Below the pieces are notes generated by a model. That model was given only the letters and a program-made list of their open reading frames with translations, ran no database searches and was not told where the DNA came from. Positions 2,812-43,272 of a stretch of DNA of 64,000 nucleotides are shown piece by piece. The position numbers were made by a program, and so were the translations under genes. The stretch covers positions 18,637-82,636 of the forward strand of contig JAQUOD010000005.1 of assembly GCA_028717245.1 (NCBI GenBank). The letters run 5' to 3'. How positions within the stretch are numbered: position 1 is the first letter of the stretch; every line of letters begins with the position of its first letter. Origin of the DNA: Candidatus Omnitrophota bacterium. GTDB lineage: Bacteria; Omnitrophota; Gorgyraeia; Gygaellales; Profunditerraquicolaceae.

Positions 2812-3474
2812 TTATATTTTTCCTGCCAGTAAATTTAACAGCTGCGGCTCGTTGCCTATCAGCGTCAGGGCAATAATATCATCCCCGGGCTTAAGGACTG
2901 TATTACCTTTGGGGACGATTACCTCTTCTCCCCGGACAATAGAAACCAAGACCGAATCCTGCGGTAGTTGGACATCCTGAACCTGTTTGTTGATTACCGG
3001 CGAATCAGGGGGCAAGTCCAGGCGTACGATGGCCAGTTTCCCGCGCTTAAAACTCATCAAGTTGACGAAATCCGAGAAGGAGACTTCTTCTTCGATAATC
3101 TTGGAAATAATTTTAGTAGAATCAATGGGTACGTCCACCCCTAATTCAGAAAAGGTGTGTTCGTTCTCGGGATCGTTCACCCTGCCTACGGTACGGCTGA
3201 TTTTAAAGATCTCCTTGGCTAGTTGGCAGATGATGAGATTGTCTTCGTCGTCGCCCGTGACCGCAGCCAACACTTCCGCGTGGGCAATCCCTGCCTCTTC
3301 CAGGATGCGCGGCTCGCAGCCGTCGCCGTTAATTACCATGGCCTCTAATTCCTTGGTTATCTCTTCGCAAATCTGCTTGTTTTTCTCCACGATACTCACC
3401 GTATGCTTATTCAGGCTTAGCCTCTTGGCTAAAAAATAACCCACCTTACCCGCACCTACTATTATGATATACAT
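2812..3474 (-). CDS. trkA: potassium transporter peripheral NAD-binding subunit TrkA
   Basis: It carries the N-terminal Rossmann motif IIVGAGKVG (TrkA_N) and a C-terminal TrkA_C-like domain, and is 220 aa. Confidence 0.85.
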   Translation of the reverse strand: MYIIIVGAGKVGYFLAKRLSLNKHTVSIVEKNKQICEEITKELEAMVINGDGCEPRILEEAGIAHAEVLAAVTGDDEDNLIICQLAKEIFKISRTVGRVNDPENEHTFSELGVDVPIDSTKIISKIIEEEVSFSDFVNLMSFKRGKLAIVRLDLPPDSPVINKQVQDVQLPQDSVLVSIVRGEEVIVPKGNTVLKPGDDIIALTLIGNEPQLLNLLAGKI

Positions 3475-3486
3475 AATCGCCCTCTT

Positions 3487-3553
3487 CGTTATTGCGTTAC
3501 TTGCGTTTTAGCGTTATTGCGTTCGAATGCTATAACGCAATAACCCTATAACA
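3487..3553. repeat. CGTTATTG x4-5 / ATAACNNN x4 hairpin element (trkA-trkA spacer)
   Basis: The units CGTTATTG, CGTTACTTG, CGTTTTAG, CGTTATTG and CGTTCG are followed by loop AATGCT and then ATAACGCA, ATAACCCT, ATAACACT and ATAACC. Confidence 0.8.
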
Positions 3554-4204
3554 CTATAACCCAAACCTTTCTCTTACTTTAGTTAGGCTGGCCACCTTCA
3601 CTGCCGCTGTTAATATGTCTCTTTCTCTTAATGTAGTTGAGGATTCCGGGATAATGACGCCGTGCAGCCGCCTGATGGCCACAACCAAAAATTCTCCGGG
3701 GATATTGATATCCTGTATGGTCTTGCCTATCAGGTTATCTTTGGCTTCTATCTCGATAACCCCCAGTTCTTTAGTCTCAATGAGGTAACTGGAAAAGCGG
3801 CTCTCGATGATTTTGTCCCTGAGCATCGCGGCAAACAAGATTGTTCCGCTGATAATCTCAAGGCCCAATGCGGCATAGATATGCGCGCGCTGGGGGTCAT
3901 ATACGCGGGCGATAACCTTGGGGACCTTGAAGATTTTTTTGGCTGCCTGCGCGGAGATTAAATTGGTATTGTCGCCGTTAGTTACCGCACAGAAGGCATC
4001 CGCCTTTTCAATGCCCGCTTGTTTTAGCAGGCTTAAAGAAAAACCATTGCCTACCAGAGTTACTCCGTTGAAAGTATCGCCAAGACGGTCAAAAGACGCC
4101 TGGCTCTTATCAATCACGACTACGTCGTGCCCTTCTGCTGATAAGAGTTTGGCTAATTCCGAACCTACTCTGCCGCAACCTACTATTATCACATACATAA
4201 TCAA
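3554..4204 (-). CDS. trkA: potassium transporter peripheral NAD-binding subunit TrkA (second paralog)
   Basis: It has the motif IIVGCGRVG, a TrkA_N plus TrkA_C architecture, and is 216 aa. Confidence 0.85.
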   Translation of the reverse strand: MIMYVIIVGCGRVGSELAKLLSAEGHDVVVIDKSQASFDRLGDTFNGVTLVGNGFSLSLLKQAGIEKADAFCAVTNGDNTNLISAQAAKKIFKVPKVIARVYDPQRAHIYAALGLEIISGTILFAAMLRDKIIESRFSSYLIETKELGVIEIEAKDNLIGKTIQDINIPGEFLVVAIRRLHGVIIPESSTTLRERDILTAAVKVASLTKVRERFGL

Positions 4205-4211
4205 CCTCGCC

Positions 4212-4296
4212 GTTCATTGAGTTCGTTGAGTCTATAGAGTTTATTGAGTTAACCTTACGAACTCAATAACTCAAAAAACTCAACAGGCTCAAATAA
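4212..4296. repeat. NNNTTGAGT x4 / ACTCAANNN x4 hairpin element (trkA-rplT spacer)
   Basis: TCATTGAGT, TCGTTGAGT, CTATAGAGT and TTATTGAGT are followed by a loop and then GAACTCAAT, AACTCAAAA, AACTCAACA and GGCTCAAAT. Confidence 0.85.
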
Positions 4297-4304
4297 CTAT
4301 TATA

Positions 4305-4652
4305 TTATCCTCTGGCTATTTCCACTAATTTCTTAAATGCCTGGGTGTCTTTTACTGCCAGATCCGCCAAAACTTTTCTGTCCAAACCCACCTTGGCTTT
4401 TTTTAGGCCCTGCATAAAACGGCTGTAGGTAATGCCTGCGCTGCGGCAGGCGGCATTGATGCGCGCGATCCATAACCTGCGGAATTCTCTTTTTTTGACC
4501 CGCCTATCGCGATAGGCATACACCAAGGCATGCAGGAGCGCGCGGCGCGCCTGCTGGTATTGTTTACTGCGGTCCCCCCAAAAGCCCTTGGCCTTCTTTA
4601 AGGCCCTCTTCTTCCTTCTCCTTGTTGCTACGCTGTGTTTGATTTTCGCCAT
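4305..4652 (-). CDS. rplT: 50S ribosomal protein L20
   Basis: The sequence [26 protein letters not shown]...VYAYRDRR is canonical L20. Confidence 0.95.
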
Positions 4653-4681
4653 AATATTACTCCTTTATAGTATTCCGTTTT

Positions 4682-4741
4682 GTATCAAAGTATCACGTGT
4701 CAGAGTGTCAAAGGAAAACTTTGATACTTGACACCTTGACA
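4682..4741. repeat. GTATCAAAG/GTGTCAAAG direct + inverted hairpin element (rplT-rpmI spacer)
   Basis: GTATCAAAGTATCACGTGTCAGAGTGTCAAAG is followed by loop GAAAA and then CTTTGATACTTGACACCTTGACAC. Confidence 0.85.
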
Positions 4742-4942
4742 CTAACCGTATGGTAACATCCTTTTGATATACTTGATATCTTTCTTTCCTCCCACAATCC
4801 TTGCGCGCCTTAAGGAACGGATCCTCTTGGTGTCCTTGCTGGTCAAAAGATGGCTCTTGCCGCAAGGCGAATATTTGATTTTACCCTTCTTGGTCAGATG
4901 CAATCTTTTCGCTACGCCTTTTTTGGTTTTCAATTTTGGCAT
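4742..4942 (-). CDS. rpmI: 50S ribosomal protein L35
   Basis: The sequence MPKLKTKKGVAKRLHLTKKGKI is canonical L35, 66 aa. Confidence 0.95.
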   Translation of the reverse strand: MPKLKTKKGVAKRLHLTKKGKIKYSPCGKSHLLTSKDTKRIRSLRRARIVGGKKDIKYIKRMLPYG

Positions 4943-4995
4943 TTTACCTCACCCCAATCGTCGTTATTAATCTATTAATGAACCCTCTGCCTTGT

Positions 4996-5511
4996 TTATT
5001 TCGGGCCGGCAATGAAATATATAACCCTGCCTTCTAACATAGGCTCTTTTTCTACCTGCCCGTCGTTCTGTAATTCCAGAATAAATTTATCGATAACCTT
5101 TCGGCCTATATCCAGATGCTCCATCTGCCTGCCGCGGAAGAACATGCTCACCTTGACCTTGTCTTTTTTCTTCAGGAAACTGATGGCATGTTTTACTTTT
5201 ATCTGGCAATCGTGCTCGTCGATATTAGGCTTAAGGCGGATCTCTTTTATGCGGGACTGGTGCTGGTGCTTCTTGGCCTCGCGTTCTTTCTTCTCCTGGT
5301 CGTATTTAAATTTAGTAAAATCGATTACCCGGCATACCGGAGGGCTGGCCGCAGGCGCAACCTCAACTAAGTCTAACTCGTGTTGATTTGCTATCTCCAG
5401 GGCCTGCTGAATAGGGACTACTCCCAACTGGTTACCGTCTGGCCCCACCAGGCGCACTTCTGGTACGCGTATTCTTTCGTTGGTGCGGATAAACTTTTTT
5501 ATCGTAACCAC
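4996..5511 (-). CDS. infC: translation initiation factor IF-3
   Basis: It shows IF-3 N- and C-domain motifs (RVPEVRLVGPDG...ALEIA...LDLVEV; KEIRLKPNIDEHD). It has a GTG start as read by the ORF track, consistent with non-ATG IF3 starts. Confidence 0.9.
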   Translation of the reverse strand: MVTIKKFIRTNERIRVPEVRLVGPDGNQLGVVPIQQALEIANQHELDLVEVAPAASPPVCRVIDFTKFKYDQEKKEREAKKHQHQSRIKEIRLKPNIDEHDCQIKVKHAISFLKKKDKVKVSMFFRGRQMEHLDIGRKVIDKFILELQNDGQVEKEPMLEGRVIYFIAGPK

Positions 5512-5521
5512 CTCCTTTTGG

Positions 5522-5598
5522 AGTTTGTTGAGTTCTTTGAGTTTGTTGAGTTAGTTGAGTTAACTCTATGAACTCTACAAACTCTATAAACTCAATGA
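5522..5598. repeat. NNNTTGAGT x4 / AACTCTNNN x4 hairpin element (infC-thrS spacer; inverted arm reaches thrS stop)
   Basis: TTGTTGAGT, TCTTTGAGT, TTGTTGAGT and TAGTTGAGT are followed by AACTCTATG, AACTCTACA, AACTCTATA and AACTCAATG. Confidence 0.85.
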
Positions 5599-7316
5599 AC
5601 TTTATTTTCTATTTCCTGCCTTATCTGTTTTACAAATTCTTCTATAGGCTTTGCCCCTAAGTCACCCTTGCCTCTTTGGCGCACGGCAACGGTCCCGTTT
5701 ATCTCCTCGCGCTCGCCCACAATCAGGATATAAGGAACCTTTGCTAATTCTGCCTGGCGTATCTTTTTGTTCAGAGTCTCGTTACGCTCATCCACCTCAA
5801 ATCTTATATGAGATTTTTCTAATTCGGGTTTAATCTTGCCCCTGATATACCCCTCTAATGAATCTTTTACCGGGATAACCATGACTTGCGTGGGGGCTAG
5901 CCACAGAGGAAACGCACCCTTATAGTGTTCTACCAAAGCGCCGATAAAACGCTCAAGGCTGCCCAAGAGCACGCGGTGCAACATTATAGGCTGTTTTTCT
6001 TTTCCTTGAGAGTCCACATAGGTAAGATTAAATCTTTTGGGGAGCGCGAAATCGCATTGAATAGTAGCGCATTGCCATTGGCGCTTCAGGGCGTCCTTTA
6101 ATTTTATATCAATCTTCGGCCCATAAAATGCGCCCTCTCCCGCATTTACCGTATAGGTTAAGCCTTTTTCTTTTAATGCCGCCTCCAACGCCTCGGTGGC
6201 CAGCTGCCAGTCTTCTTCTGAGCCGATATATTTTTCCGGACGCGTGCTTAACTCAATCCCCACGTCACTAAAACCGAAGACCTTCATCGTATCAAAGACA
6301 AATTCTATAATCATCTGTATTTCCTGCACCAGTTGTTCGGGTAAACAAAATATGTGCGCATCGTCCTGGGTAAAGCCACGCACCCGAAGCAGGCCGTGGA
6401 GGACCCCTGTCTTTTCATGGCGATAAACCGTGCCCAGTTCAAATAACCGTATAGGCAGGTCTTTATAACTGCGTATCCTGGATTTATAAATCAGGATATG
6501 GCCAGGGCAGTTCATCGGCTTTAAAACAAACTCCCGGTTTTCGATTTTTAAGATGTACATGTTCTCTTTGTAATATTCATAGTGGCCGGAGGTCTTCCAG
6601 AGCTCTGCCTGCATAATATGCGGGGTAATCACTATCTGATAGCCGCGGCGCAGATGCTCCTGCTTTTCGTAATCCTCGATTATCGTCCGCAGTAGCGCGC
6701 CCTTGGGATGATAAAAGACCAGCCCTGCCCCTGCCTCTTCATGATAGATATCAAATAATTCCATTGCCGGCCCCAGCTTCCTGTGGTCGCGCAACTTTGC
6801 CTCTTCTAAATTTTTTAAATATTCTTCTAATTTTTGCTTGGTTTCAAAACAAGTCCCGTAAATCCTCTGCAGCATCGGATTTGTCTCAATCCCGTGCCAA
6901 TAAGATCCGGCAACAGAGAGCAATTTAAAGGCCTGGATTTTGCCGGTGGATGCCAGATGCGGCCCGCGGCATAAGTCTATAAAATCTTTGCCTGTCTTGT
7001 AGATGGAGGCTGTCTCCCCGGGGAGCGCCTGGATAAGTTCTATTTTATAATCCTCTTTTAATTTTTTGAATAAGGCGAGCGCCTCTTTTTTGGAGAGCTC
7101 TTCTCTGATAAAAGGCTCATCCTTAGCGATTATTGCGCGCATCTTTTTTTCTATCTTTTCTAAATCCTCGTCGGTAAATGGCTCTTTCTTATCAAAGTCA
7201 TAGTAAAAGCCGTCTTCGATAGAAGGGCCGATGCCCAGCTTCGCCTGCGGCCAGAGCTCTTTTACCGCCTGAGCCATAATGTGGGAACACGAATGTCTTA
7301 AGGTATCTAAATTCAT
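5592..7316 (-). CDS. thrS: threonine--tRNA ligase
   Basis: This 574-aa protein has a class II aaRS core with ThrRS editing/second-additional-domain HxxxH (HSCSHIMAQA) and a C-terminal anticodon-binding domain. It lies in the conserved thrS-infC-rpmI-rplT neighbourhood. Confidence 0.93.
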   Translation of the reverse strand: MNLDTLRHSCSHIMAQAVKELWPQAKLGIGPSIEDGFYYDFDKKEPFTDEDLEKIEKKMRAIIAKDEPFIREELSKKEALALFKKLKEDYKIELIQALPGETASIYKTGKDFIDLCRGPHLASTGKIQAFKLLSVAGSYWHGIETNPMLQRIYGTCFETKQKLEEYLKNLEEAKLRDHRKLGPAMELFDIYHEEAGAGLVFYHPKGALLRTIIEDYEKQEHLRRGYQIVITPHIMQAELWKTSGHYEYYKENMYILKIENREFVLKPMNCPGHILIYKSRIRSYKDLPIRLFELGTVYRHEKTGVLHGLLRVRGFTQDDAHIFCLPEQLVQEIQMIIEFVFDTMKVFGFSDVGIELSTRPEKYIGSEEDWQLATEALEAALKEKGLTYTVNAGEGAFYGPKIDIKLKDALKRQWQCATIQCDFALPKRFNLTYVDSQGKEKQPIMLHRVLLGSLERFIGALVEHYKGAFPLWLAPTQVMVIPVKDSLEGYIRGKIKPELEKSHIRFEVDERNETLNKKIRQAELAKVPYILIVGEREEINGTVAVRQRGKGDLGAKPIEEFVKQIRQEIENKVH

Positions 7317-7317
7317 C

Positions 7318-7394
7318 GTCGTTAATCGTTATTCGTTAATCGTTATTAGATGGCTAACTTATCCATTAACGATTAACTATTAACCAATAACTAA
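7318..7394. repeat. CGTTAAT/CGTTATT x4 + ATTAACG-type x4 hairpin element abutting thrS start codon
   Basis: CGTTAAT, CGTTATT, CGTTAAT and CGTTATT are followed by loop AGATGGCTAACTTATCC and then ATTAACG, ATTAACT, ATTAACC and AATAACT. The element begins 1 nt from the thrS ATG on the minus strand. Confidence 0.85.
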
Positions 7395-7396
7395 AA

Positions 7397-7471
7397 TGGG
7401 CGCTACAGGACTTGAACCTGTGGCCTTTTCCATGTCAAGGAAACGCTCTAAACCAACTGAGCTAAGCGCCC
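7397..7471 (-). tRNA. tRNA-Val (anticodon GAC)
   Basis: The revcomp folds as a cloverleaf with a 7-bp acceptor stem GGGCGCT/AGCGCCC. The anticodon stem is TTTCC/GGAAA with loop TTGACAT, the T-arm is ACAGG-TTCAAGT-CCTGT, and the total is 75 nt. Confidence 0.85.
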
Positions 7472-7484
7472 GATAAATTCAAAG

Positions 7485-7567
7485 TGGGCAAGGAGGGAGT
7501 CGGACCCTCATGACCTTGCGGCCAATGGCTTTTAAGGCCATCGTGTAAGCCATTCCACCACTTGCCC
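7485..7567 (-). tRNA. tRNA-Leu (anticodon TAA), long variable arm
   Basis: The revcomp is GGGCAAG...ATGGC-CTTAAAA-GCCAT with a long variable arm, T-arm GAGGG-TCCGACT-CCCTC and acceptor CTTGCCC+A, 83 nt. Confidence 0.85.
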
Positions 7568-7573
7568 AAATTT

Positions 7574-8242
7574 TCATGATGGTTCGCAATAAACAGTTGT
7601 GCTTTTATCCCAACCTGTATACGAACTCAAGCACTGTTGAGCCAAATTTATCTTCCTCTCAAGCCCAAAGCAATGTTTATAATAACACTGTTTAGCAATT
7701 TCTCTTGCCGCCATTTTACCGTATTTTAATACCCAAAAATTATTTCTGCTGTTATGAATCTTACCGAAAACTTCTAATAACCCCGCTATTGTGTCGCTTA
7801 ACCAGTGAACAAATTCTTCGGAGCCAGAATATATCCTCAGGCTCCATTGTTCTCCTTTATTGGTCGGGTGTACCCAGCGACGGATACATCCGTCACCGTC
7901 AATTACTCCTCTTAAAAAATCAACGAAATATTGATTTGGTATTTCTAGAGCACCCAATGTCAGAGATTTATTTTGTGTTAGCCCAATCGATAAAAGGAAA
8001 TTGTATAAATTTTTGTTTCCTACCTGAATATGAAAACATCTCTGATTTTTACTATTATATTTGATACCAATTTTGTTCTTGAGCCCGGTTGCGTCTTTAA
8101 TCGCCTGAAGGAATTGAGAATCTTTAGAGGTTATGTCTATATGTCTCCCATCCGGACATAAACACCCATCAGTTGCAATCAAACCTACCAAATACCAAAG
8201 ATTTGAACCTTCAATTTTCAATTCTTTTCGCTTATTCGGCAT
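7574..8242 (-). CDS. free-standing LAGLIDADG homing endonuclease (two-motif, monomeric type)
   Basis: This 222-aa ORF has two LAGLIDADG motifs (LWYLVGLIATDGCL and FLRGVIDGDGCI). It fills the whole spacer between tRNA-Cys and tRNA-Leu with gaps of 6-7 nt. Confidence 0.8.
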   Translation of the reverse strand: MPNKRKELKIEGSNLWYLVGLIATDGCLCPDGRHIDITSKDSQFLQAIKDATGLKNKIGIKYNSKNQRCFHIQVGNKNLYNFLLSIGLTQNKSLTLGALEIPNQYFVDFLRGVIDGDGCIRRWVHPTNKGEQWSLRIYSGSEEFVHWLSDTIAGLLEVFGKIHNSRNNFWVLKYGKMAAREIAKQCYYKHCFGLERKINLAQQCLSSYTGWDKSTTVYCEPS

Positions 8243-12795: not shown

Positions 12796-13026
12796 TCAAG
12801 TATTTTCTTTTCCGCCGAAGGCGGATCCGCCTGCGGCGGAATCTCTTATAATACTTACCCTGACTTTTGCGGGCTTGGCGCCAGGCATACCAAAAAGCCC
12901 TTTTTCTTCCTCGGAGAGCACCTCTATTTTTACTTTAGAACGCGGAAGCTTGAGTTGTTTTAAGGCCTTCTTGATTGCATCTTCTACAGTACTACCTTCA
13001 ATTTCCAGGCTAAATTTAGGGGTCAT
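12796..13026 (-). CDS. Jag_N-domain protein (KhpB N-terminal domain only)
   Basis: This 76-aa protein matches the Jag N-terminal domain pattern (IEGSTVEDAIKKALKQL...KVKIEVL...FGMPGAKPAKVRV). It occupies the jag position after yidC but lacks the KH/R3H domains. Confidence 0.55.
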   Translation of the reverse strand: MTPKFSLEIEGSTVEDAIKKALKQLKLPRSKVKIEVLSEEEKGLFGMPGAKPAKVRVSIIRDSAAGGSAFGGKENT

Positions 13027-14540
13027 CTTTTCCTGCTCATCAGCACCTGCTGTAACAACATCAGCGTACTATTAATAAACCAATATAAGACTAACCCTGA
13101 AGGCATCCGATAAAAAATAAAGCCGAACATCAGGGGAAAAATAATCATCATTAATTTCTGCTGGTCGGCAGAACCACCACTGACAGCAGACATGGACATT
13201 TTTTGCTGGAAAAACATCCCGATAGCCATTAATATCGGTAAGATATTAATTTCATTGCCTAATATGGGGATAGATGTCGGCAAAACAAATAAGCGGTCCG
13301 GCGAGGATAAGTCTTTGATCCATAAAAAGTTAGCGCCTTTTAAGGCTACAGAGCGGATAAGCACTTGGTAAAGAGCAAAGAATATGGGTATTTGCAGGAC
13401 CATAGGCAGGCAACCGCTGAGGGGGTTTACTTTATACTCGCGATATAAAGCCATAATCTCAGTATTGAGTTTTTGCGGATTGTTTTTGTGGAGTTTCTTT
13501 AATTCTTCTATGGCAGGCTGTAAGGCCTGCATCTGCTTCATAGAGCGCATTTGTTTTATGGAGAGGGGATAGAGGAGCAAATAGATCAAAAAGCTTAATA
13601 TAATGATAGTAACGCCCCAATTATGCACTAAAGAATAGAGCAGGTCTAATAATTTCAAGAGGAGCCGGGCAATAAAATCAAAGGTGCCATAATACATCAC
13701 TGCTGCCCACTCTGATTTCGCCGCAGTGATTTGTCGCAACTCTTGCGGCCCCAAATAGATACGAAATGTACGCCGCGCTTGTTGACCGGGATTTAAAGCA
13801 AGTTCCCCACTAGCTAAACCTACCAGTGATTCCTGCGCATTCAGTTTTTTCACAAAGCCGGTGTAATTATCAGGATCCGGTTCGACAATCATACAAAAAT
13901 AATTATCCCGCAAACCCATAAATTTCACAGCACTAAAATTAATTTCTTTGCGCAGATTAGAATGCACTATCTTATCACCGGCGGCTATGGTGAGATCCTG
14001 CAACCGGGACTGCGCAGGCCCGGCTGCGAAATTTAAGACACCCAGGGTTAAAGGCAGGCCAACAAAGAGGGGCTGACCGGATAAATTCTGCGCTGTAATT
14101 TCCAGGCGGATTTCGTAATCTCCGACGGCAACGAAGCGTTTGGTAATCTGTTTGGCGTTATCGCGATAGATAAAATTCACGCCTTGCGGGGTAATGCTTT
14201 CCTTACGGAAGACAAGGTTGGCATCGCCTGATAAGAGCCCGTATTTTATGGGAAAGGCATAATCCTGATAAGATTTAAAGACTACCTCCTGAATCGCTGC
14301 CTGAGATTCATTAAAAATAAGGTCGTATTTTGCTTGAGAAAATTTCAATAGGGTAGGAGTAATGGGGTCGGGTTTGGGTAACGCCAACGCTTCTACAACT
14401 ACTGGCTTAACCGCACCCGGCGCTGATATATTTTGTGTAACTCCTTTATTATCAATATTATAAGTCTTAGAAACCAAGGCGGACCAGCTTAATAAAACCA
14501 GCAACGAAAGCGCTATAGCTAAAATTAAACGTCTATCCAT
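13023..14540 (-). CDS. yidC: membrane protein insertase YidC
   Basis: This 505-aa protein has an N-terminal TM segment, a periplasmic domain and the C-terminal 5-TM YidC core. It is in the rpmH-yidD-yidC cluster. Confidence 0.9.
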   Translation of the reverse strand: MDRRLILAIALSLLVLLSWSALVSKTYNIDNKGVTQNISAPGAVKPVVVEALALPKPDPITPTLLKFSQAKYDLIFNESQAAIQEVVFKSYQDYAFPIKYGLLSGDANLVFRKESITPQGVNFIYRDNAKQITKRFVAVGDYEIRLEITAQNLSGQPLFVGLPLTLGVLNFAAGPAQSRLQDLTIAAGDKIVHSNLRKEINFSAVKFMGLRDNYFCMIVEPDPDNYTGFVKKLNAQESLVGLASGELALNPGQQARRTFRIYLGPQELRQITAAKSEWAAVMYYGTFDFIARLLLKLLDLLYSLVHNWGVTIIILSFLIYLLLYPLSIKQMRSMKQMQALQPAIEELKKLHKNNPQKLNTEIMALYREYKVNPLSGCLPMVLQIPIFFALYQVLIRSVALKGANFLWIKDLSSPDRLFVLPTSIPILGNEINILPILMAIGMFFQQKMSMSAVSGGSADQQKLMMIIFPLMFGFIFYRMPSGLVLYWFINSTLMLLQQVLMSRKR

Positions 14541-14603
14541 AATTTTACCCCGCTAGATAAAGGTTATCCCGCCGCAACCACATTCTTTGGCGGGAGTGAT
14601 TAT

Positions 14604-14819
14604 TTATAGTAAGGGATCCCAACCACTTTTACGCGAGAAAGGATGGCACGCTAATAGCCTCTGCGCACCCTTTAAAGTCCCGCGCAAGAAACCGTATTTG
14701 CTGATCGCCTGTTTAGTGTATTCTGAACAGCTGGGCAGAAAGCGGCAAGAGGAAGGCAGCATCCTGCGTATGCAGCTTTGATATATATTAAGGAGACCGA
14801 GCGCTGCTCTTTTTAACAT
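14604..14819 (-). CDS. yidD: membrane protein insertion efficiency factor YidD
   Basis: It has the PSCSEY motif and is 71 aa. Confidence 0.85.
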   Translation of the reverse strand: MLKRAALGLLNIYQSCIRRMLPSSCRFLPSCSEYTKQAISKYGFLRGTLKGAQRLLACHPFSRKSGWDPLL

Positions 14820-14956
14820 TAAAGAGAAATACTGTGTCTGCCTTTTTGGCGCCGACGGGCTAAAACTGCTCTGCCTGCCTTTGTGGCCATGCGGCGCCGG
14901 AACCCGTGCCGTCGTTGACCGACGATATTTGTGGGCGTCTTTAAATTTTTTTTCAT
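14819..14956 (-). CDS. rpmH: 50S ribosomal protein L34
   Basis: The minus-strand ATG at 14954-14956 gives [45 protein letters not shown], 45 aa. It was missed by the ORF track because it is under 60 aa. Its stop shares 1 nt with the yidD start. Confidence 0.9.
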
Positions 14957-15117
14957 GCGGGGGCTCGTCCTTGTATTGTATGGCGTTTAGAATAGTGCAG
15001 TAATTATAACATAAGCCAACGCCAAGTCAATACCGCTTTTTAAAATATTATCCCGCGCCCCCTAACCACTTGAATCAAGATAACCACGGGTGAAAAGGAT
15101 ATTTAAAGTATTGATCC

Positions 15118-15205
15118 ATGGGCGAACGGTTTTAGCGGGTCCTGCCGCGGGGGCGCCTCTCGTCAAATTTTCCTCGAGGCATCCCCCGCGTCACCCGCTA
15201 AAAGC
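15118..15205 (+). repeat. copy 1 of a repeated palindromic element (44-nt identical core CCTCTCGTCAAATTTTCCTCGAGGCATCCCCCGCGTCACCCGC with flanking compensatory stem)
   Basis: An identical 44-mer is also present at about 33685-33728. Outer stem: copy 1 is TTTTAGCGGGT...ACCCGCTAAAA and copy 2 is TTTTGCGGGT...ACCCGCAAAA. Confidence 0.7.
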
Positions 15206-15329
15206 ATTATCTATAAACAGTATGCTAATTTTAAACTTAACTTGATTTTTGTTGACTGACACAAAAATTATTGTATAATAATGCACACACCTTATTTTCT
15301 CTTGCGCTATTATTGGGCTTTGTTATAAT

Positions 15330-15385
15330 ATTTCCACAGGTTTATCCAAGTTGTGCATAAGCTGTGAATAATGTAGATAAGTGGG
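15330..15385. promoter_or_regulatory. cluster of DnaA-box-like 9-mers immediately upstream of dnaA
   Basis: TTATCCAAG, TGTGCATAA, TGTGAATAA and TGTAGATAA (7-8 of 9 matches to TTATCCACA/TGTGGATAA) occur within 60 bp, and there is a TATAAT-like box at about 15323. Confidence 0.55.
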
Positions 15386-15396
15386 GCAATTAAGCC

Positions 15397-16731
15397 ATGC
15401 TGGACGTCCAAGGGCTTTGGGAGAAGGCGAAGAGCCATTTACAAGATAAGCTGGGTAAGACTACTTTTGACACGTGGATACTGCCTCTGAAGCCAAAATA
15501 CACAAGCGAAACTGAGCTGACCCTGGCAGCCCCGGATACTTTTTTCCGGGACTGGGTAAATACGCACTATGGCCAACCCATCCAGGAAGCAATTAATGGT
15601 TTCGCCAAGCAGGTAATCCGTCTGCATTTAGAAGCCGCCTCTGCTGCCAAGGATAGTTTATCCCGACTACCCCCACTGGCCACAACTAAAATCCAGGATA
15701 TAAAGGATATCTCCGGCCTGAACTCCCGTTATACATTTGAAAATTTTGTCATCGGCCCGTCTAACCGCCATGCCCATGCTTATTCTCTGGCAGTGGCAGA
15801 ATCCCCGGCCAAAACTTATAACCCTTTGTTTATATACGGCGGGGTGGGCCTGGGCAAGACGCACCTGATCCAGGCGGTCTGCCATCATGCTAAAAACAAG
15901 GCCGGGGGGAATCTTAAGATCTGCTATATGACTTCAGAGCGGTTCACCAATGAGCTCATCGACGCCATACAGCACCATTCTACACCTGCCTTCAGGCAGA
16001 AATACAGAAACGTGGATATATTGGTCATAGATGATATACATTTTATTGCCGGCAAGGAATCTACCCAGGAAGAATTCTTCCATACCTTTAATACATTATA
16101 CGACGCCCACAAGCAGATTATTATTTCCTCCGATAGGCCGCCCAAAGAGATATCTAACTTGCAAGACAGGCTCGTCTCCAGGTTTGGCTGGGGGTTGACT
16201 ACGGATATACAGCCCCCGGATTTAGAAACGCGGGTGGCGATATTAAAGAAAAAAATCGAGAGAGAGCCGGTGGCAGTGCCGGATGAAGTCATATTTTTTA
16301 TCGCCCAGCTGATTAAAACTAATATCCGGGAATTGGAGGGCGCTCTCATACGCACCATAGCTTATTCTCTGTTGGAAGAGAAACCAATTACCTTAGAATT
16401 AACCAAAGAGGTTTTAAAAGACCTCTTAAAAGAACCACAAAAATTAATTACCGTGGATTTTATACAGCGTTGCGTGGCGGAAGAATACGGGGTGTCGCTT
16501 GCGGACTTAAAGACCAGGCGTAGGAGCAAAAATATTGTCCTGCCCCGGCAAGTAGCTATGTATCTGAGCAGGGAACTTACAGACCTGTCTTTGCCGGAAA
16601 TAGGTAATTTTTTCGGGGGCAAAGATCATACTACCGTATTACATTCCTATAATAAAATCAAAAATGATTTAAATAGTAACGAGATATTAAAAAACAAGGT
16701 AGAAAGGGTTATACAAGTTATTCAACAGTAA
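15397..16731 (+). CDS. dnaA: chromosomal replication initiator DnaA
   Basis: It has the AAA+ Walker A GGVGLGKTHL, sensor motifs, and a C-terminal DnaA-box binding HTH (VAMYLSRELT). It is 444 aa. Confidence 0.97.
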   Translation: MLDVQGLWEKAKSHLQDKLGKTTFDTWILPLKPKYTSETELTLAAPDTFFRDWVNTHYGQPIQEAINGFAKQVIRLHLEAASAAKDSLSRLPPLATTKIQDIKDISGLNSRYTFENFVIGPSNRHAHAYSLAVAESPAKTYNPLFIYGGVGLGKTHLIQAVCHHAKNKAGGNLKICYMTSERFTNELIDAIQHHSTPAFRQKYRNVDILVIDDIHFIAGKESTQEEFFHTFNTLYDAHKQIIISSDRPPKEISNLQDRLVSRFGWGLTTDIQPPDLETRVAILKKKIEREPVAVPDEVIFFIAQLIKTNIRELEGALIRTIAYSLLEEKPITLELTKEVLKDLLKEPQKLITVDFIQRCVAEEYGVSLADLKTRRRSKNIVLPRQVAMYLSRELTDLSLPEIGNFFGGKDHTTVLHSYNKIKNDLNSNEILKNKVERVIQVIQQ

Positions 16732-17965: not shown

Positions 17966-22013
<4,048 letters not shown>

Positions 22014-22175: not shown

Positions 22176-25100
22176 ATGTATACGCGTAACGAAAAAATTA
22201 TCCCGGTTTATATTGAGGATGAGGTCAAGGACTCTTATTTAAATTATGCCATGAGCGTCATCGTCGGCCGCGCCCTGCCCGATATCCGCGACGGCTTAAA
22301 GCCGGTGCACAGGCGCATTCTTTATGCCATGCAGGAGCTTAATCTTGACCACTCTAAGCCTTATAAGAAATGCGCGCGTATCGTCGGCGAGGTCCTGGGT
22401 AAATACCATCCCCACGGCGATGTCGCGGTTTATGATGCCTTAGTCAGGATGGCCCAGGGTTTTTCCCTGCGCTATCCTTTGGTAGACGGGCAGGGAAATT
22501 TTGGATCGGTCGACGGGGATGCAGCTGCCGCGATGAGATATTGCGTCACCGGAGATACTCTGATTGTTACAGATAAAGGACTGCAAAGAATAGACAAACT
22601 TCCTCATCATTCCAAAACAGATTTTCGGGTACTTTCATTAAATAATAAGATAAATCATGTTTCAAAATGGTTTGATTCCGGAGAGCATTTAACTAAAAAA
22701 ATTACTACCTTTAGAGGTTTTAGCTTATGCGGGAGCCGGAATCATCCTATTTTAACGTGGCAACGTAATGGAACAAAGCCAAAATTAGTTTGGACACTAT
22801 TGAATAATGTAGAAAATGGCGATTTTGTCGTAGTCAGTAGGAGCGGTTCGTTATTCCCTTCAAGGGAACCTTTATTAAAAAAATTTTATCCAGAACTTCG
22901 AAACAGAAGGCAGGAGCATAAGCTTCCTCGCGCTATGAATGTAGATCTGGCTTTTATTTTGGGAGCGCTAATTGCAGAAGGTTCTATAAGCAGGGAACAA
23001 ATTGGATTCTGTAATGGGGATAAAGAGTTTCTACGGGAATTTAAATCGTGTTTCCAGCGAGTATTCCCCGATTGCAGGCTGCATGAATTTGTAAGAAAAC
23101 CGTTGAGTTATGGGAAAAAGAAATGTACTTATTTAGAAATTCATTCAATGCATGTTATAGATTTTTTGAAAAATCTAGGGTTACGTCAGTTGCGAGCTTA
23201 TGATAAAACCATTCCAGATATAATTTTTTCTTCCTCGAAAAAATCGGTTGCCGCGTTTATAAAAGGTTATGCAGAGGGAGATGGTAGTATTTGTGTTGGC
23301 AAAAGAAACCCTGATATCAGCTTGATATCAACCAGCGGAAAATTGATTCAAGGTTTACAGGTTTTCCTCCTAATGTTTGGCATTGATTCTTCGCATAGAT
23401 TTCATAAGCAAAAAAACTATTTTAGGTTGTTTATTAGAGGCCGCAACAATCTCGATTTATTTAAAAATCAAATAAATTTTGCTACTAGGAAAAGTCGTGA
23501 AAGGTTGATAGATATTTGTAATCGCAATAAAACTGATTGGGTTATGTCCAAGACAGATTGTATTCCCTACATCGCCGACTATCTTCGTAAAAAAAGCACA
23601 CGGTGCAAGAGAAAATATTGGGGGAACATAGAATGGCTAAAAAAACACAACATCGATAGGTACCCAAAAATAGAAAAATACTGGCCCAGGCTAAGAAGGG
23701 TTCTTGATAAAGACGATGTTAGTTTGTTTGAGGGTTTGATAAAAAATAGATATATCTTTGATAAAATTGTTTCGGTAGAAGATGCTGGTAAGAAAAGAGT
23801 CTATTCAATTAAAGTGGATAGCCCGTGCCACTCATTTGTATCCAATGGATTCATAAGTCATAATACTGAAGCGCGCCTGGCTGCTATTTCCGATGAGATA
23901 CTCGCGGATATTGATAAGGACACCGTAAATTTCGGGCCCAATTTTGACTCCTCCCTCAAAGAGCCGCTTTTATTGCCCGCGGCCTTGCCTAATCTGTTAG
24001 TGAACGGCTCAAGCGGTATAGCTGTGGGTATGGCTACCAATATCCCCCCGCACAATTTGAATGAAGTGGCCGATGCCATTATCTATCTATTAGATCATCC
24101 GGAAACCGAAATCAAGGACCTGATGCGTTATATCAAGGGTCCGGATTTTCCGACGGGCGGCGTAATCTGCGGCAGGAACGGTATCAAAGATGCCTATACC
24201 ACAGGAAAAGGTAAGCTCACCGTGCGCGCGCGGGCCACTATCGAGCGCCAGAAGAACGGCAAGGACCTGATTATAATTACTGAGATTCCCTACCAGGTGC
24301 AGAAATCCGCGTTAATTGAGGCCGCCGCCGCTTTGGTGGACGATAAAAAAATAGAGGGTATTTCTGACATCCGCGATGAATCCGATAAAGACGGGATGCG
24401 TATCGCGGTAGAACTCAAGCGCGACGTGGAAGCGCAGATTGTCTTGAATCAGCTCTTTAAACATACGCAACTGGAGACTACCTTCGGGATTATTATGCTG
24501 GCGCTGGTAGACAACAGGCCGCGGGTTTTGACGTTACGTCAGATGTTGGAATATTATATCGAGCACCGCAAGATTATCATCCGGCGCAGGACGCAATTTG
24601 AATTAGATAAGGCCTTAAAGAGGGCGCATATCTTAGAGGGCTTAAAGATTGCCCTGAAATACATCGACCGGATTATCAAGGTCATCAAGACCTCCAAGAA
24701 TACGGAGAATGCCAAAGAGCGCCTGATGAAGGAATTCGGCCTTTCTGATGTGCAGGCGCAGGCGATATTAGAAATGCAGTTGCAGCGCCTCACTGCTTTA
24801 GAGCGCGATAAGATTGACGCCGAATATTTAGAGCTCCTGAAAAAAATTGAACTGTGTAAAGCCATACTCGCCTCGGAGAAGAAAATTGAAGGCATCATCA
24901 AAGAGGATCTGGAGGCCTTAAAGAAAAAATACGGCGATGAACGCAGGACCGACCTGGTCGCCGAAGCAGAAGAATTAGAGGTGGAAGACCTTATCGCCGA
25001 AGAAGACGTAGTGGTGACAATAAGCCACGGCGGTTATATCAAGCGCTTGCCGGTGAGCGCCTACCGTAAACAGAAACGCGGGGGCACAGGGGCAACGGGC

Positions 25101-25931
25101 GCAGAAGTCAAAGAAGAGGATTTTATAGAACATCTTTTTGTGGCCTCGACCAAAGATTATTTATTGACCTTCGCTGATAAGGGCCAGGTGCATTGGCTCA
25201 AGGTTTATGAAATCCCGCAGGCCAGCCGCACTTCCAAAGGCAAGGCCATCATTAATCTTTTACAGATGGAAGCAGGCTCTAAAGTCAGCTCGACCATACC
25301 GGTGAAGGAATTCTCCGCTGACCAATACCTGGTAATGGTCACCAAGTGCGGCCAGATTAAAAAGACAAGGCTTGACGCCTACGGTAATCCGCGCAAGGGC
25401 GGGATTATCGGCATTAGCCTGGATAAGGGCGATGAGCTGATCGGCGTAGAGTTAACCGACGGAAAACAGGAGCTGCTTATCGGTACCCGCCAGGGTAAGG
25501 CCATAAGATTTTCTGAGAGCAAGGTGCGGGATATGGGCAGGCAGGCAGGAGGCGTACGCGCCATCTCTTTAGCCAAGAAAGACGAAGTGATTGCCATGGT
25601 TTTAGCCCAGAAGGATACCACAGTATTAACCGTTACGGAATTAGGCTTTGCCAAACGTACACCCATTCAAGAATACCGCCTGACCAGCCGCGGCGGCAAA
25701 GGCATTATTAATATAAAAGTCACCAGTAAGAACGGCGAGGCAGTAAGTTTAAAGACTGTCAGCGACAACGACGAGCTGATGGTTATTACACAGAACGGCA
25801 TGTTCTTACGTTGTGCGGTCAAAGATATCCGCACTACCGGCAGGTCTGCCCAGGGAGTGCGGCTGATTAAGCTACAGGAGAAAGACCGCGTTTCTTGCGT
25901 GGCGCCGGTGATTGCAGAAGAGGAAGAATAA
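22176..25931 (+). CDS. gyrA: DNA gyrase subunit A, intein-containing precursor (about 810-aa extein plus 441-aa intein)
   Basis: The GyrA N-terminus is present. AAMRY (catalytic Tyr at extein residue 122) is interrupted by CVTGDTLIV...NGFISHN and resumes at [11 protein letters not shown]. Confidence 0.95.
22542..23864 (+). mobile_element. GyrA intein with LAGLIDADG homing endonuclease domain
   Basis: It is inserted directly after the catalytic Tyr. Splice-junction blocks resemble the mycobacterial GyrA intein (…ITNGFVSHN). LAGLIDADG motifs are [14 protein letters not shown] and [14 protein letters not shown]. It is 1323 nt and in frame. Confidence 0.85.
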
Positions 25932-29891: not shown

Positions 29892-29987
29892 TAGTTCATT
29901 GAGTCTATTGAGTTCATAGAGTCCATTGAGTTGTATATATCATAACTCAAAAAACTCAAAAAACTCAAAAAACTCAAAAAACTCAAT
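29892..29987. repeat. 9-mer NNNTTGAGT x4 / ACTCAAAAA x4 hairpin element (pyrR-pyrB spacer, ends at pyrB ATG)
   Basis: The units CATTGAGT, CTATTGAGT, TCATAGAGT and CCATTGAGT are followed by loop GTATATATCATA and then ACTCAAAAA x4 plus ACTCAAT. Confidence 0.85.
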
Positions 29988-30935
29988 ATGGTCTGGACGA
30001 GAAAAGATTTACTGGGTTTAGAAGATTTAAGCCGGGAAGAGCTGGAGTTTATCTTAGCTACTGCGGATTCCTTTAAAGAGGTTTCTACCCGCGAGATTAA
30101 AAAAGTCCCGGCCTTACGCGGTAAGACCGTGGTGAATTTGTTCTATGAACCCTCTACAAGGACAAGGGTATCTTTTGAGCTAGCAGCAAAACGCTTATCC
30201 GCAGACGTGATTAATATTGCCTCAGAGACCTCCAGCGTCAAAAAAGGGGAAACCTTAATTGATACCGGCAGGAACATAGAGGCCCTGAAAGTAGATATTA
30301 TCGTAGTGCGGCATAATTATTCCGGGGCAGCGGCAATACTGGCGCGCCATGTCAAGGCCAGCGTGATTAATGCCGGAGACGGCTGGCACGAACATCCTAC
30401 GCAGGCGCTCTTGGATATTTTTACTTTAAAGGAGAAACTAGGCAGGATTGAAGGGTTAAGGGTGAGTATTGTCGGAGATATCGCGCACTCGCGCGTGGCC
30501 CGTTCCAATATCTGGGGGTTGACTAAATTAGGCGCTCAAGTGACGGTCTGCGCGCCCAAAATGTTGGTGCCGCCGGCCATTGAAGAAATGGGCGTTAGAG
30601 TGACTAATGATATAGATGAGGCGCTAAAAGATGCTGATGCAGTGGATGTCTTAAGGATGCAGTTTGAGCGCGATGAGGGTAATGCCTTCCCAGAGCAATT
30701 AGAATATTTTAAAAACTTCGGGATTACCGAAGAAAGGTTAGAGAAGGCTAAGAAGAATATTATTGTCATGCATCCGGGGCCCTTAAACCGCGGGATTGAA
30801 ATTTCCAGCGGCGTAGCCGACGGCGCAAACTCTGTGATACTGGAACAGGTGACCAACGGCATTGCCGTGAGGATGGCCGCGCTCTTTTTAGTAGCGCAGG
30901 CGAATGAGAATATCAGCCATGAAGATACTCATTAA
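29988..30935 (+). CDS. pyrB: aspartate carbamoyltransferase catalytic subunit
   Basis: It has the STRTR and HPTQALLD motifs and is 315 aa. Confidence 0.95.
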   Translation: MVWTRKDLLGLEDLSREELEFILATADSFKEVSTREIKKVPALRGKTVVNLFYEPSTRTRVSFELAAKRLSADVINIASETSSVKKGETLIDTGRNIEALKVDIIVVRHNYSGAAAILARHVKASVINAGDGWHEHPTQALLDIFTLKEKLGRIEGLRVSIVGDIAHSRVARSNIWGLTKLGAQVTVCAPKMLVPPAIEEMGVRVTNDIDEALKDADAVDVLRMQFERDEGNAFPEQLEYFKNFGITEERLEKAKKNIIVMHPGPLNRGIEISSGVADGANSVILEQVTNGIAVRMAALFLVAQANENISHEDTH

Positions 30936-39431: not shown

Positions 39432-39550
39432 CACCTGGTGTGAATCCAATCGGGCACCAGGTGCGAATTCAAGATTGTACCAGGTACAAGATTAGATTTG
39501 GAAACGGTACAAGATTAGTTTCGCACCTGGTACGAGATTAGCTCGGCACC
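39432..39550. repeat. array of 5-6 palindromic GCACCNGGTGC-type units (upstream of mutM)
   Basis: The units CACCTGGTG, GCACCAGGTGC, GTACCAGGTAC, GCACCTGGTAC and GCACCTAGTGC are separated by spacers of about 10-18 nt that contain AAGATTAG. Confidence 0.8.
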
Positions 39551-39552
39551 TA

Positions 39553-40368
39553 GTGCAAGGAGAAGAAATGCCGGAGTTACCGGAAGTTGAGACCATAAAA
39601 AGGGAATTAGAAAAAGCAGTCCTGGGCAAGAAGATTACCGAGGTCTATGTGCATCGTGCTGTGGTTATTCGTCAACCCTCTGTAAAGAGATTTAAGCTGG
39701 GCTTAACCGGCGCCAGCATTAAGCATATCTTGCGTAAGGCCAAGGTTTTGATTTTGGAGCTTTCTAACGGTAAGGCCCTGGTTATTCATTTGAAGATGAC
39801 CGGCCAACTGGTTTATCCGGGTAATGATAAAGCCAGCCGGGTGAGTTTTAAATTATCCGGCGGTAAAACCCTGGATTTTAACGACCAGAGATTATTTGCG
39901 GAACTGCGGCTGATGGATGATTGGCGCAGCTTAAAATTTATCCAGGGATTAGGCCCGGAGCCGTTTGCTATAACCGCGGAAGAATTCAAAGGCATGCTCA
40001 GCAGTAAAAAGACTAAAATCAAACCACTGCTTTTGGACCAAACATTTATTTCCGGCATAGGCAATCTCTATGCTGCGGAAGCGCTCTTTCGGGCCGGGAT
40101 TCATCCTGAACGGCCCGCGTCTTCTTTAACAGATAGAGAAAAAGCTTTGTTATTTCGGGAAATAAAAGATACTTTATCCGAAGCTATAAGATACAAAGGT
40201 TCCTCGGTAGACCAATACGTGCAGTTATCGGGTGAACCCGGAGACTACGCGCAATATCATAAGGTATATGGCCGCGAAGGTAAGCCTTGTTTGGTCTGCA
40301 AAACACCGATTAAAAGGATGGCCTTAGGCGGCAGGGGGACTTATTTCTGCCCGAGGTGCCAGCGCTAA
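39553..40368 (+). CDS. mutM: formamidopyrimidine-DNA glycosylase
   Basis: It has the N-terminal MPELPEVE and a C-terminal zinc finger CxxC...CxxC, and is 271 aa. Confidence 0.9.
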   Translation: MQGEEMPELPEVETIKRELEKAVLGKKITEVYVHRAVVIRQPSVKRFKLGLTGASIKHILRKAKVLILELSNGKALVIHLKMTGQLVYPGNDKASRVSFKLSGGKTLDFNDQRLFAELRLMDDWRSLKFIQGLGPEPFAITAEEFKGMLSSKKTKIKPLLLDQTFISGIGNLYAAEALFRAGIHPERPASSLTDREKALLFREIKDTLSEAIRYKGSSVDQYVQLSGEPGDYAQYHKVYGREGKPCLVCKTPIKRMALGGRGTYFCPRCQR

Positions 40369-41053: not shown

Positions 41054-41918
41054 AAAGATGCTTCAAATCAAGGCAAAAATACTTTATAATAAAAGGATTA
41101 AGGGTAATTATTTTCAACTGGTCCTGGGAGCTTCGCAGATAGCCAAAGAAGCCCAGCCAGGACAATTTGTGAATATCAGGGTAAACGGCGGCGCTTTTGA
41201 ACCGCTGCTGCGCCGGCCCTTTAGTATCCATAAGGCCTCAAGAGGTAGCATAGAGATTCTTTATGAGGTGCTGGGTGAGGCGACGCAGATTTTATCAACT
41301 CGCAAGGCAGGGGAATATTCAGATGTGATTGGGCCATTAGGGCATGGTTTTAATTACAGCTTACAGCTTACAGCTTACAGCTTACGGATATTAGTTGCCG
41401 GCGGCATGGGAGTCGCGCCGCTTTTATTCCTCGCGGAAAAAATACAGAGGTGTCAAAGTGTCCCTGCCTGTCCGGCAGGCAGGAAAGTGTCAAAGTATCA
41501 AAGTATGGTATTAATAGGAGCTAAGACAAAATATCAGCTTTTCTGCGAAAAAGAGTTTAAAGATTTAGGTTGCGCAGTAAAAATCGCCACTGACGACGGC
41601 TCAAGAGGTTTTAAGGGCAAGGTTACTGAGTTGTTAAAACATATTCTACCAACGACCAACGACCAACGACCAACGACCATATACGCTTGCGGCCCAAGGC
41701 CGATGTTAAAACAAGTTGCGTTGATTTCTCAAAAACATAAAATTCCCGGTCAGATTTCTTTAGAAGAACATCTGGCCTGCGGCATAGGTGCGTGTTTAGG
41801 TTGCGTAGTGAATACGACAGGAGGTTTTCAGAGAGTCTGTAAAGAAGGCCCGGTCTTTAGCGCTGATAGTATAATCTGGTCAAATGAAGACGAGACTTAT
41901 GGAGCGAAGCGAACGTAA
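41043..41918 (+). CDS. pyrK: dihydroorotate dehydrogenase electron-transfer subunit PyrK (with three in-frame repeat insertions)
   Basis: It has the FAD-binding RRPFSI, an NAD-binding domain, and C-terminal Cys ligands CGIGACLGCVV for the 2Fe-2S cluster. Confidence 0.8.
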   Translation: MNGKKMLQIKAKILYNKRIKGNYFQLVLGASQIAKEAQPGQFVNIRVNGGAFEPLLRRPFSIHKASRGSIEILYEVLGEATQILSTRKAGEYSDVIGPLGHGFNYSLQLTAYSLRILVAGGMGVAPLLFLAEKIQRCQSVPACPAGRKVSKYQSMVLIGAKTKYQLFCEKEFKDLGCAVKIATDDGSRGFKGKVTELLKHILPTTNDQRPTTIYACGPRPMLKQVALISQKHKIPGQISLEEHLACGIGACLGCVVNTTGGFQRVCKEGPVFSADSIIWSNEDETYGAKRT

Positions 41919-43182: not shown

Positions 43183-43272
43183 AAGCGGCGTCAAAGTATC
43201 AAGGTGTCAATGTGTCAAAGTGTAGATTTTTTGATACTTTGATACACTGACACTTTGACACAACATTAGGAG
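43183..43272. repeat. GTCAAAGT/GTATCAAG x4 + inverted x4 hairpin element (GT2-tauE spacer)
   Basis: CGTCAAAGTATCAAGGTGTCAATGTGTCAAAGTG is followed by loop TAGATTTT and then TTGATACTTTGATACACTGACACTTTGACAC. Confidence 0.85.

Follow-up and report, generated by a model that had tools for sequence, protein, structure and literature searches.

A heptamer-repeat hairpin between tRNA-Val and thrS is one of a class of short tandem arrays found across Candidatus Omnitrophota

In a Candidatus Omnitrophota genome, a hairpin of two inverted arrays of four heptamers fills the spacer that separates tRNA-Val(GAC) from thrS. This element is a member of a class of tandem arrays, with units of 7–9 nt in 4–5 copies, that is found across Candidatus Omnitrophota; members are either solitary, including in frame within housekeeping genes, or form inverted pairs that fill spacers between co-oriented genes. 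Nothing marks the thrS-leader hairpin as a thrS-specific regulatory switch, and such a role is not supported. The reading preferred here, although our confidence in it is evenly poised, is that of a generic hairpin between cistrons, with a stem under selection and repeats that arise from slippage. We infer a role for the hairpin at the RNA level.

The window, meaning the whole 64-kb stretch of DNA that was analysed, is from Candidatus Omnitrophota and has 45% G+C. Its ThrS is 72–82% identical to those of Omnitrophota MAGs, and the nearest ThrS in both large collections is only 81–82% identical; its own sequence is registered at NCBI as the protein of a MAG. The minus strand carries, in order, tRNA-Leu, tRNA-Val, thrS, infC, rpmI, rplT, trkA, trkA and trkH. 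The features of the thrS leader, in the direction of transcription, are as follows.

7484–7567, minus strand: tRNA-Leu(UAA), upstream of tRNA-Val
7397–7471, minus strand: tRNA-Val(GAC), preceding thrS
7393–7396, minus strand: UUUU trailer (AAAA on the plus strand), directly behind the tRNA-Val discriminator base
7365–7392, minus strand: tRNA-proximal arm, with one variable position per unit
7348–7364, minus strand: 17-nt centre, AGATGGCTAACTTATCC, predicted to fold in the RNA into an apical helix of 5 bp capped by a 9-nt loop
7320–7347, minus strand: AUG-proximal arm of four units, found by TRF and in the sequence
7314–7316, read on the plus strand: CAT, which is complementary to the start codon of thrS; CGT occupies 7317–7319
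5592–7316, minus strand: thrS, 574 aa, with a start confirmed by relatives that align from residue 1 and with no Shine-Dalgarno (SD) sequence

Several other features lie elsewhere in the window. A free-standing LAGLIDADG_3 open reading frame, absent from relatives, is located between tRNA-Cys and tRNA-Leu (7574–8242, minus strand). The genes yidC (minus strand) and dnaA (plus strand), at 13023–16731, flank a switch in gene orientation at about 14.8–15.4 kb; this point, at a distance of 8 kb from the thrS element, is the probable origin of replication. Both gyrB (18243–22013) and gyrA (22176–25931) contain one intein, that of gyrA with a LAGLIDADG endonuclease domain. Direct repeats of 23 nt (GGTACAAGATTAG...), in 2.3–2.6 copies, occupy 39483–39559 just upstream of an fpg-like gene (39553–40368), and 53875–53932 on the plus strand matches the Rfam model of the nhaA-I riboswitch (47.3 bits against a gathering score of 37).

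Read on the plus strand, positions 7320–7392 have the form (CGTTAWT)x4, the 17-nt centre and (AWTAACN)x4. The AUG-proximal units are CGTTAAT (7320–7326), CGTTATT (7327–7333), CGTTAAT (7334–7340) and CGTTATT (7341–7347), which in the thrS-sense RNA give (AAUAACG AUUAACG)x2; the tRNA-proximal units are ATTAACG (7365–7371), ATTAACT (7372–7378), ATTAACC (7379–7385) and AATAACT (7386–7392). TRF reports the AUG-proximal array at 7319–7347 with period 7 (90%) or period 14 (100%), and the tRNA-proximal array at 7359–7391 with period 7 (80%). Sequence and TRF thus confirm the arrangement described in an earlier sequence-only reading of this DNA, namely four CGTTAAT/CGTTATT units, a centre and four inverted units. 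That reading placed the element 1 nt from the ATG, but the first unit begins 4 nt away, with CGT between them. It also described the leader as essentially the hairpin alone, which is borne out by an element that fills the 80-nt gap from tRNA-Val(GAC) to the thrS ATG, the spacer containing nothing else.

When the thrS 5’ leader is folded, the thrS-sense RNA forms a stable hairpin at about −23 to −26 kcal/mol (−25.8, z = −5.3; 0 of 200 shuffles equally stable), and the antisense strand reaches −19.2 (z = −3.7). The predicted core consists of 11 bp plus the 5-bp apical helix, at about −16 kcal/mol (−15.9), and is flanked by two weak 4-bp A/U helices with 3x3 internal loops between them, so that predicted structure extends to within 3 nt of the AUG. 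Predicted unpaired probability over positions −20 to −1 is ~0.33, about two thirds of these positions being paired. Such predicted pairing next to the AUG would sit uneasily with an essential gene if nothing opened or cleaved the hairpin.

The 80-nt leader contains no SD-like GGAG or GAGG, in agreement with the earlier remark that thrS has no recognisable SD, while SD-like sites of the GGAGG or GAGG type precede infC, rplT and both trkA genes. The start codon of infC itself is apparently ATA (about 5509–5511, minus strand), 7–9 nt behind GGAGG, and is ATT in the L117 locus (about 5290); this class of unusual infC start codon is known from IF3 autoregulation in E. coli. A promoter and terminator scan of the tRNA-Val/thrS spacer finds no promoter-like or terminator-like site. 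The hairpin does not have the form of an intrinsic terminator, its stem being A/U-rich, with ACGAUG behind it in place of a U tract. Rfam searches of 3300–7700, at gathering and E <= 1 thresholds, return tRNAs only and no T-box; at the thrS/infC hairpin there is a sub-threshold chance match to mycoplasma_FSE, which reaches 36 bits where the gathering score is 88.

Comparison of thrS leaders among relatives shows the hairpin to be an exception. Of 159 loci, 113 have the tRNA-Val(GAC) gene immediately upstream of thrS and co-oriented with it. The distinct tRNA-Val-to-thrS spacers number 110. Of these, 54 do not exceed 35 nt (start codon 6–35 nt behind the tRNA) and are A/T-rich and unstructured, and only five of the 54 contain an SD-like tetramer. 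The other 56 are longer; 18 of them hold an unrelated conserved structured element, and about 10 hold tandem-repeat hairpins with other units. Because half of the spacers are short, unstructured and, with few exceptions, without an SD, the hairpin in the thrS leader is an optional insert, and the basal state in the clade is an SD-less thrS start a few bases behind the tRNA. The same element at the same site is present in only one other lineage, comprising L117, the identical L161–L164 (from several samples) and L166; the ThrS proteins of L166 and L117 are 96% identical. Here ATTAACG is the last unit and abuts the ATG directly (0 nt in L117 and L166, compared with 3 nt in the window). In a comparison of five proteins, the L117 lineage ranks only 41st of 137 among relatives of the window, and the two nearest relatives, L081 and L083, lack this element. 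This patchy distribution, with absence from close relatives and presence in a distant one, indicates that the element is dispensable.

Two further kinds of feature were observed between tRNA-Val and thrS in other loci. The structured element mentioned above, found in about 18 loci (for example L031 at 5903–6000, L029, L047, L109 and L150), begins with a small hairpin adjoining the tRNA, followed by ggcactcaagcgagcg...cgagcggagtgcc; spacers with it fold at about −12 to −60 kcal/mol, mostly −30 to −50. In L165, L170, L025, L026, L009 and L064 the position is taken by an open reading frame of 180–200 aa with no Pfam match.

The sequence-only reading considered the position of the hairpin suggestive of regulation as in E. 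coli, where two mimics of the tRNA-Thr anticodon arm flank the SD of thrS and are bound by ThrRS. The Omnitrophota arrangement resembles that operator in that the leader immediately before the thrS start codon is structured, and an operator whose binding by ThrRS blocks initiation would suit a hairpin that in the window, as in L117 and L166, is 0–3 nt away from the AUG, a leader with no SD and a conserved stem. However, the Omnitrophota leader differs from the E. coli operator in having one long repeat hairpin, no mimic, no SD and no conservation in the clade. No mimic of the tRNA-Thr anticodon arm (7-nt loop, NGU) is found: the window has a 9-nt apical loop, AAGUUAGCC, L117 and L166 have ACACGC or ACACAC, and no part of the element has diverged more than this loop. 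Moreover, the element is missing from more than 100 relatives with the tRNA-Val/thrS arrangement, it has no Rfam match, and the same build recurs at seven unrelated gene junctions. Specific feedback by ThrRS on this leader is not plausible, and an operator of the E. coli kind is barely credible here.

Eight inverted-pair hairpins, with z between −4.8 and −8.5, are present in the window, and five of them sit in the thrS-infC-rpmI-rplT-trkA operon. The seven besides the thrS-leader hairpin occupy spacers beside unrelated genes.

5521–5605, minus strand: thrS/infC hairpin, an inverted pair of (TTGAGTTNN)x4–5 that overlaps the thrS stop; orthologue in L096
4682–4741, minus strand: rpmI/rplT hairpin, an inverted pair of GTGTCAAG and TTGACAC
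4212–4298, minus strand: rplT/trkA hairpin, an inverted pair of TTGAGTTNN; orthologue in L083, absent from L117
3487–3562, minus strand: trkA/trkA hairpin of CGTTATTG-type 8-mers; orthologues in L096 and L125, absent from L117
22019–22145, plus strand: gyrB/gyrA hairpin of TGTGTAA and TTACACG
29893–29986, plus strand: PRTase/pyrB hairpin, one arm a perfect (AACTCAAAA)x4.8, with a perfect array at 29944–29986; ends at the pyrB ATG, no SD
43190–43262, plus strand: GT2/TauE hairpin of GTCAAAGT and TTTGACAC

The claim that the thrS-leader hairpin is built like the TTGAGT elements is supported by this set. The trkA/trkA hairpin, which had been presented as a second copy of the thrS element, is real and does lie between the two trkA genes, but it is not a copy: it has period 8, its own fold (−30.4, z = −4.6, when folded alone) and its own orthologues, and it shares with the thrS hairpin only the common architecture and a CGTTA core. 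It overlaps the stop codon of the upstream trkA (3554–3556). The single heptamer CGTTAWT shows no enrichment beyond the two arrays; it has 32 matches against 21 ± 4 expected, and the arrays themselves account for the excess. At pyrB (29986–29990) the ATG stands directly behind the last AACTCAA unit with no SD, making this a second gene arranged like thrS. TRF detects many further arrays of 7–9 nt and about four copies in the window, where at least 10 unrelated units are found within 64 kb. A bias of arms towards G+T versus A+C holds for 13 of 14 arms in the window and is not upheld across genomes (35 vs 38).

Some unit families do recur in the window (TTGAGTT three times, GTGTCAA three times and the CGTTA type twice), as would be expected of mobile miniature elements of the MITE or REP kind, for whose copying to new sites a transposase would act in trans. 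The L167 locus also contains two near-identical GTGTGTAA hairpins in adjacent spacers, infC/rpmI and rpmI/rplT (6420–6518 and 6720–6811), whose similarity includes the downstream SD region and which indicate that elements can be copied within a genome. Nevertheless, paralogues share only a 5–7 nt core, and neither loops nor variable positions, whereas same-site orthologues in other genomes are more alike than paralogues are. Comparison of filled and empty spacers between the window and L117 reveals no target duplication, at flanks too diverged for base-level precision. There is also no fixed terminal motif, the single heptamer is not dispersed, and no transposase is present among the 10 window ORFs scanned against Pfam. 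A mobile origin is therefore quite improbable.

The hairpins nevertheless show conservation at particular sites together with turnover between genomes. Between the window and L117 the thrS-leader element is 82.5% identical, compared with 46% at four-fold sites of thrS. The TTGAGTT hairpins at thrS/infC (window vs L096) and at rplT/trkA (window vs L083) are 74% and 76% identical, respectively, against 43–51% at four-fold sites. In an alignment of three sequences (window, L117 and L166), with a structure derived from the same sequences, 4 of 48 paired columns vary, while 14 of 30 unpaired ones do (p = 0.0002; p = 0.015 if the apical loop is left out). These three sequences contain no compensatory pair changes; the stems are simply invariant, and both arms of the thrS-leader hairpin are equally conserved. 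At other sites the occupants differ. L117 does not have the window’s rpmI/rplT hairpin or the two hairpins that follow it, and its thrS/infC spacer contains a non-homologous hairpin of CTTATCG and CGATAAG. The rplT/trkA spacer holds a tandem-repeat hairpin in six of the seven genomes compared (window, L083, L165, L167, L169 and L170), built from at least four unrelated units.

An alternative is that the hairpins are functionless by-products, a phylum-specific bias towards slippage and template switching creating and homogenising arrays wherever they are tolerated. The spacer between tRNA-Val and thrS would be tolerant if thrS initiation is SD-independent; arrays of arbitrary unit are found throughout, even in frame within pyrK, pyrD and pyrF; distribution is patchy among close relatives; and neither covariation nor an excess of G.U oppositions is seen. 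A neutral origin does not, however, account for elements that change more slowly than four-fold sites (74–82% vs 43–51% identity), for substitutions that avoid paired columns or for unrelated hairpins that repeatedly occupy the same spacers. It is a possible explanation, though we consider it doubtful.

The wider class was defined by a census of arrays of at least three copies in 151 non-redundant Omnitrophota loci (1.44 Mb). Period 7 predominates, with 129 arrays as against 4 in shuffled sequence; periods 6, 8 and 9 contribute 9, 28 and 16 arrays, respectively. The first 977 kb hold 127 arrays, of which 70 are intergenic, though intergenic sequence makes up 12% of the DNA, and 38 of these 70 are accompanied by an inverted partner. 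Nearly all arrays with a perfection of 95% or more have 3.7–4.8 copies, in coding and intergenic DNA alike, and perfect runs of four (n = 13) and three copies (n = 10) are similarly common. Unit sequences are highly diverse, about 100 unrelated ones being found over the loci.

Across 25 hairpins from this class, the sense strand is the more stable in 18 (18:7 with flanks removed), which is weak evidence for a function in RNA. G.U and A.C oppositions are equally frequent (59 vs 58 in these 25 hairpins, 24 vs 25 in the window), leaving no RNA-strand signature and some room for a constraint at the level of DNA. A cruciform or array could, for example, be a place where a nucleoid, gyrase or replication protein binds or pauses, a role that has been proposed for REP/BIME and that would fit the equal conservation of both arms and a region 8 kb from dnaA and the probable oriC. 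Such a role is very unlikely, as units wholly different between sites and genomes argue against a sequence-specific binder, and every intergenic hairpin of the window is in a spacer that is transcribed and has co-oriented genes on its two sides; the strand preference in stability also points away from DNA.

Solitary arrays are also found within coding sequence, where a hairpin role is unlikely. Those in the window are the following.

41354–41385, plus strand: (TTACAGC)x4.6, solitary, in frame in pyrK; other units there in relatives
41648–41679, plus strand: (ACCAACG)x4.6, solitary, in frame in pyrK; other units there in relatives
44048–44078, plus strand: (AAATCCC)x4.4, solitary, in frame in pyrD
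44580–44606, plus strand: (CAGCGAA)x3.9, solitary, in frame at the N-terminus of pyrF

A further perfect heptamer array of the same kind occupies 1157–1181. The window, L171 and L172 have about five heptamers at each of two fixed sites in pyrK, of equal total length and with different units: TTACAGC, TTGCCGG/TTACCGG and TTACCAA at site 1, and ACCAACG, TACGAGT and ACTATNA at site 2. Most Omnitrophota PyrK proteins carry peptides with a 7-residue period at both sites (for example NYSLQLTAYSL vs DYQLPITNYQLP), and there is almost no length change between PyrK proteins with repeats and homologues without them, insertions being judged against Omnitrophota homologues because PDB alignment is too distant. 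This near-constant length rules out a simple 21-nt insertion, and the pyrK arrays undergo concerted evolution, or repeated renewal, at an unchanged position.

Other small elements appear to have been translated in these genes. At 41446–41506, pyrK contains a 22-nt G+C palindrome, CCCTGCCTGTCCGGCAGGCAGG, inside a direct array of GTGTCAAA, the whole translated in frame, and some PyrK homologues have a similar peptide at the position of the palindrome (for example APCLSGRQAS). The ThrS proteins of L002, L018, L031, L039, L042, L050, L105 and L012 have in-frame insertions of 8–30 residues, placed at three hot spots that follow YYDFD, KIED and VLVIP; these insertions look like translated small palindromic or repeat elements.

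The arrangement at thrS suggests how a generic inter-cistron hairpin may work. The absence of an SD, and of room for a promoter when the start lies 6–35 nt behind tRNA-Val, makes it most likely that thrS is transcribed together with the upstream tRNAs. Processing of the tRNA 3’ end would then release the thrS mRNA and leave the hairpin as its leader, since the tRNA-Val gene encodes no CCA. The hairpin may mark the boundary between tRNA and mRNA in the precursor, where it would either be processed or hold back decay, and at most would damp SD-independent initiation. With the hairpin 0–3 nt from the AUG and paired positions conserved, a generic effect on mRNA processing or initiation is plausible. 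The hairpins at thrS/infC, rpmI/rplT, rplT/trkA, trkA/trkA and gyrB/gyrA and upstream of pyrB may have the same role. Their repeats would be made by slippage or template-switch homogenisation, a process that appears very active on 7-nt periods in this phylum, and purifying selection would then keep the stem.

A bolder version of the generic hairpin is also conceivable, though rather unlikely: hairpins of heptamers of arbitrary sequence between cistrons would be a phylum-wide selected signal, renewed by a dedicated 7-nt slippage process that also imprints loops of 7-residue period at fixed sites in essential proteins at constant length. At SD-less genes such as thrS and pyrB, this signal would take the form of a single-stranded A-rich landing array paired with its antisense arm.

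Several known systems resemble these arrays in part. Correia/MITE hairpins and the intercistronic RNase III sites of phage T7 are co-transcribed with their neighbours, and cleavage by RNase III alters mRNA stability or translation. Like them, the Omnitrophota elements are long imperfect hairpins with internal loops between cistrons; Correia elements have fixed TIRs and target duplications. The STRR heptamers of Calothrix and Nostoc cyanobacteria, reportedly described by Mazel et al. in 1990, share with the Omnitrophota arrays the presence of several tandem, intergenic and unexplained heptamer units per genome in one lineage. STRRs of cyanobacteria, however, are fixed units that served as fingerprinting probes, whereas the Omnitrophota units are not fixed, and to our knowledge STRRs have been described without dominant inverted-pair hairpins or in-frame coding arrays. 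We know of no explanation for the origin and role of the heptamer tandem repeats seen since 1990 in cyanobacteria, Xanthomonas and Beggiatoaceae.

REP/BIME and REPIN sequences are intra-operon hairpin repeats for which mRNA stabilisation and transcript punctuation have been proposed (PMC3116915, PMC3733652). Unlike the Omnitrophota elements, REPs have family sequences, a GTAG or CGTC head and RAYT transposases, and they have no internal tandem periodicity. The Omnitrophota hairpins have no common head and are not many near-identical copies of a palindrome; their paralogues share only the short core described above. In Beggiatoaceae, TAACTGA direct repeats occur in 2–6 copies, the largest class ending 1 nt before a start codon, and also in ribosomal-protein operons; a canonical RBS is rare in their spacers (MacGregor 2015, PMC4679880). 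They differ in being a single unit with only one reported inverted set and in being predicted to act as binding sites in single-stranded form rather than as hairpins. Among published systems, the inverted four-unit heptamer arrays of Xanthomonas come closest. The GGGAATC arrays of Xanthomonas and the GGGGAYT arrays of Nostoc mostly have four units, are 89–93% intergenic and mostly between co-oriented ORFs, include 70–75 convergent pairs with the potential to form stem-loops, and are unexplained in function (Rehm et al. 2015, PMC4692102). The Omnitrophota arrays are likewise rich in period 7, intergenic and of about four units, with some convergent pairs. However, there one G-rich unit capable of forming a G-quadruplex is used, whereas here many unrelated and mostly A/T-rich units are found, together with 8- and 9-nt variants, fixed sites in essential genes and hairpins conserved between species.

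The literature search found no description linking Omnitrophota to such repeats, and this phylum offers a third and very gene-dense setting with hundreds of genomes. Its combination of arbitrary units, conserved orthologous hairpins and fixed coding sites separates the origin of the repeats from the persistence of the hairpins and opens both questions to comparative and metatranscriptomic tests. For annotation, thrS in this clade should be treated as an SD-less gene fused behind tRNA-Val, and its structured leaders should not be called operators by analogy with E. coli. Compared with the systems above, the Omnitrophota element is a new form of a known and unexplained kind of repeat.
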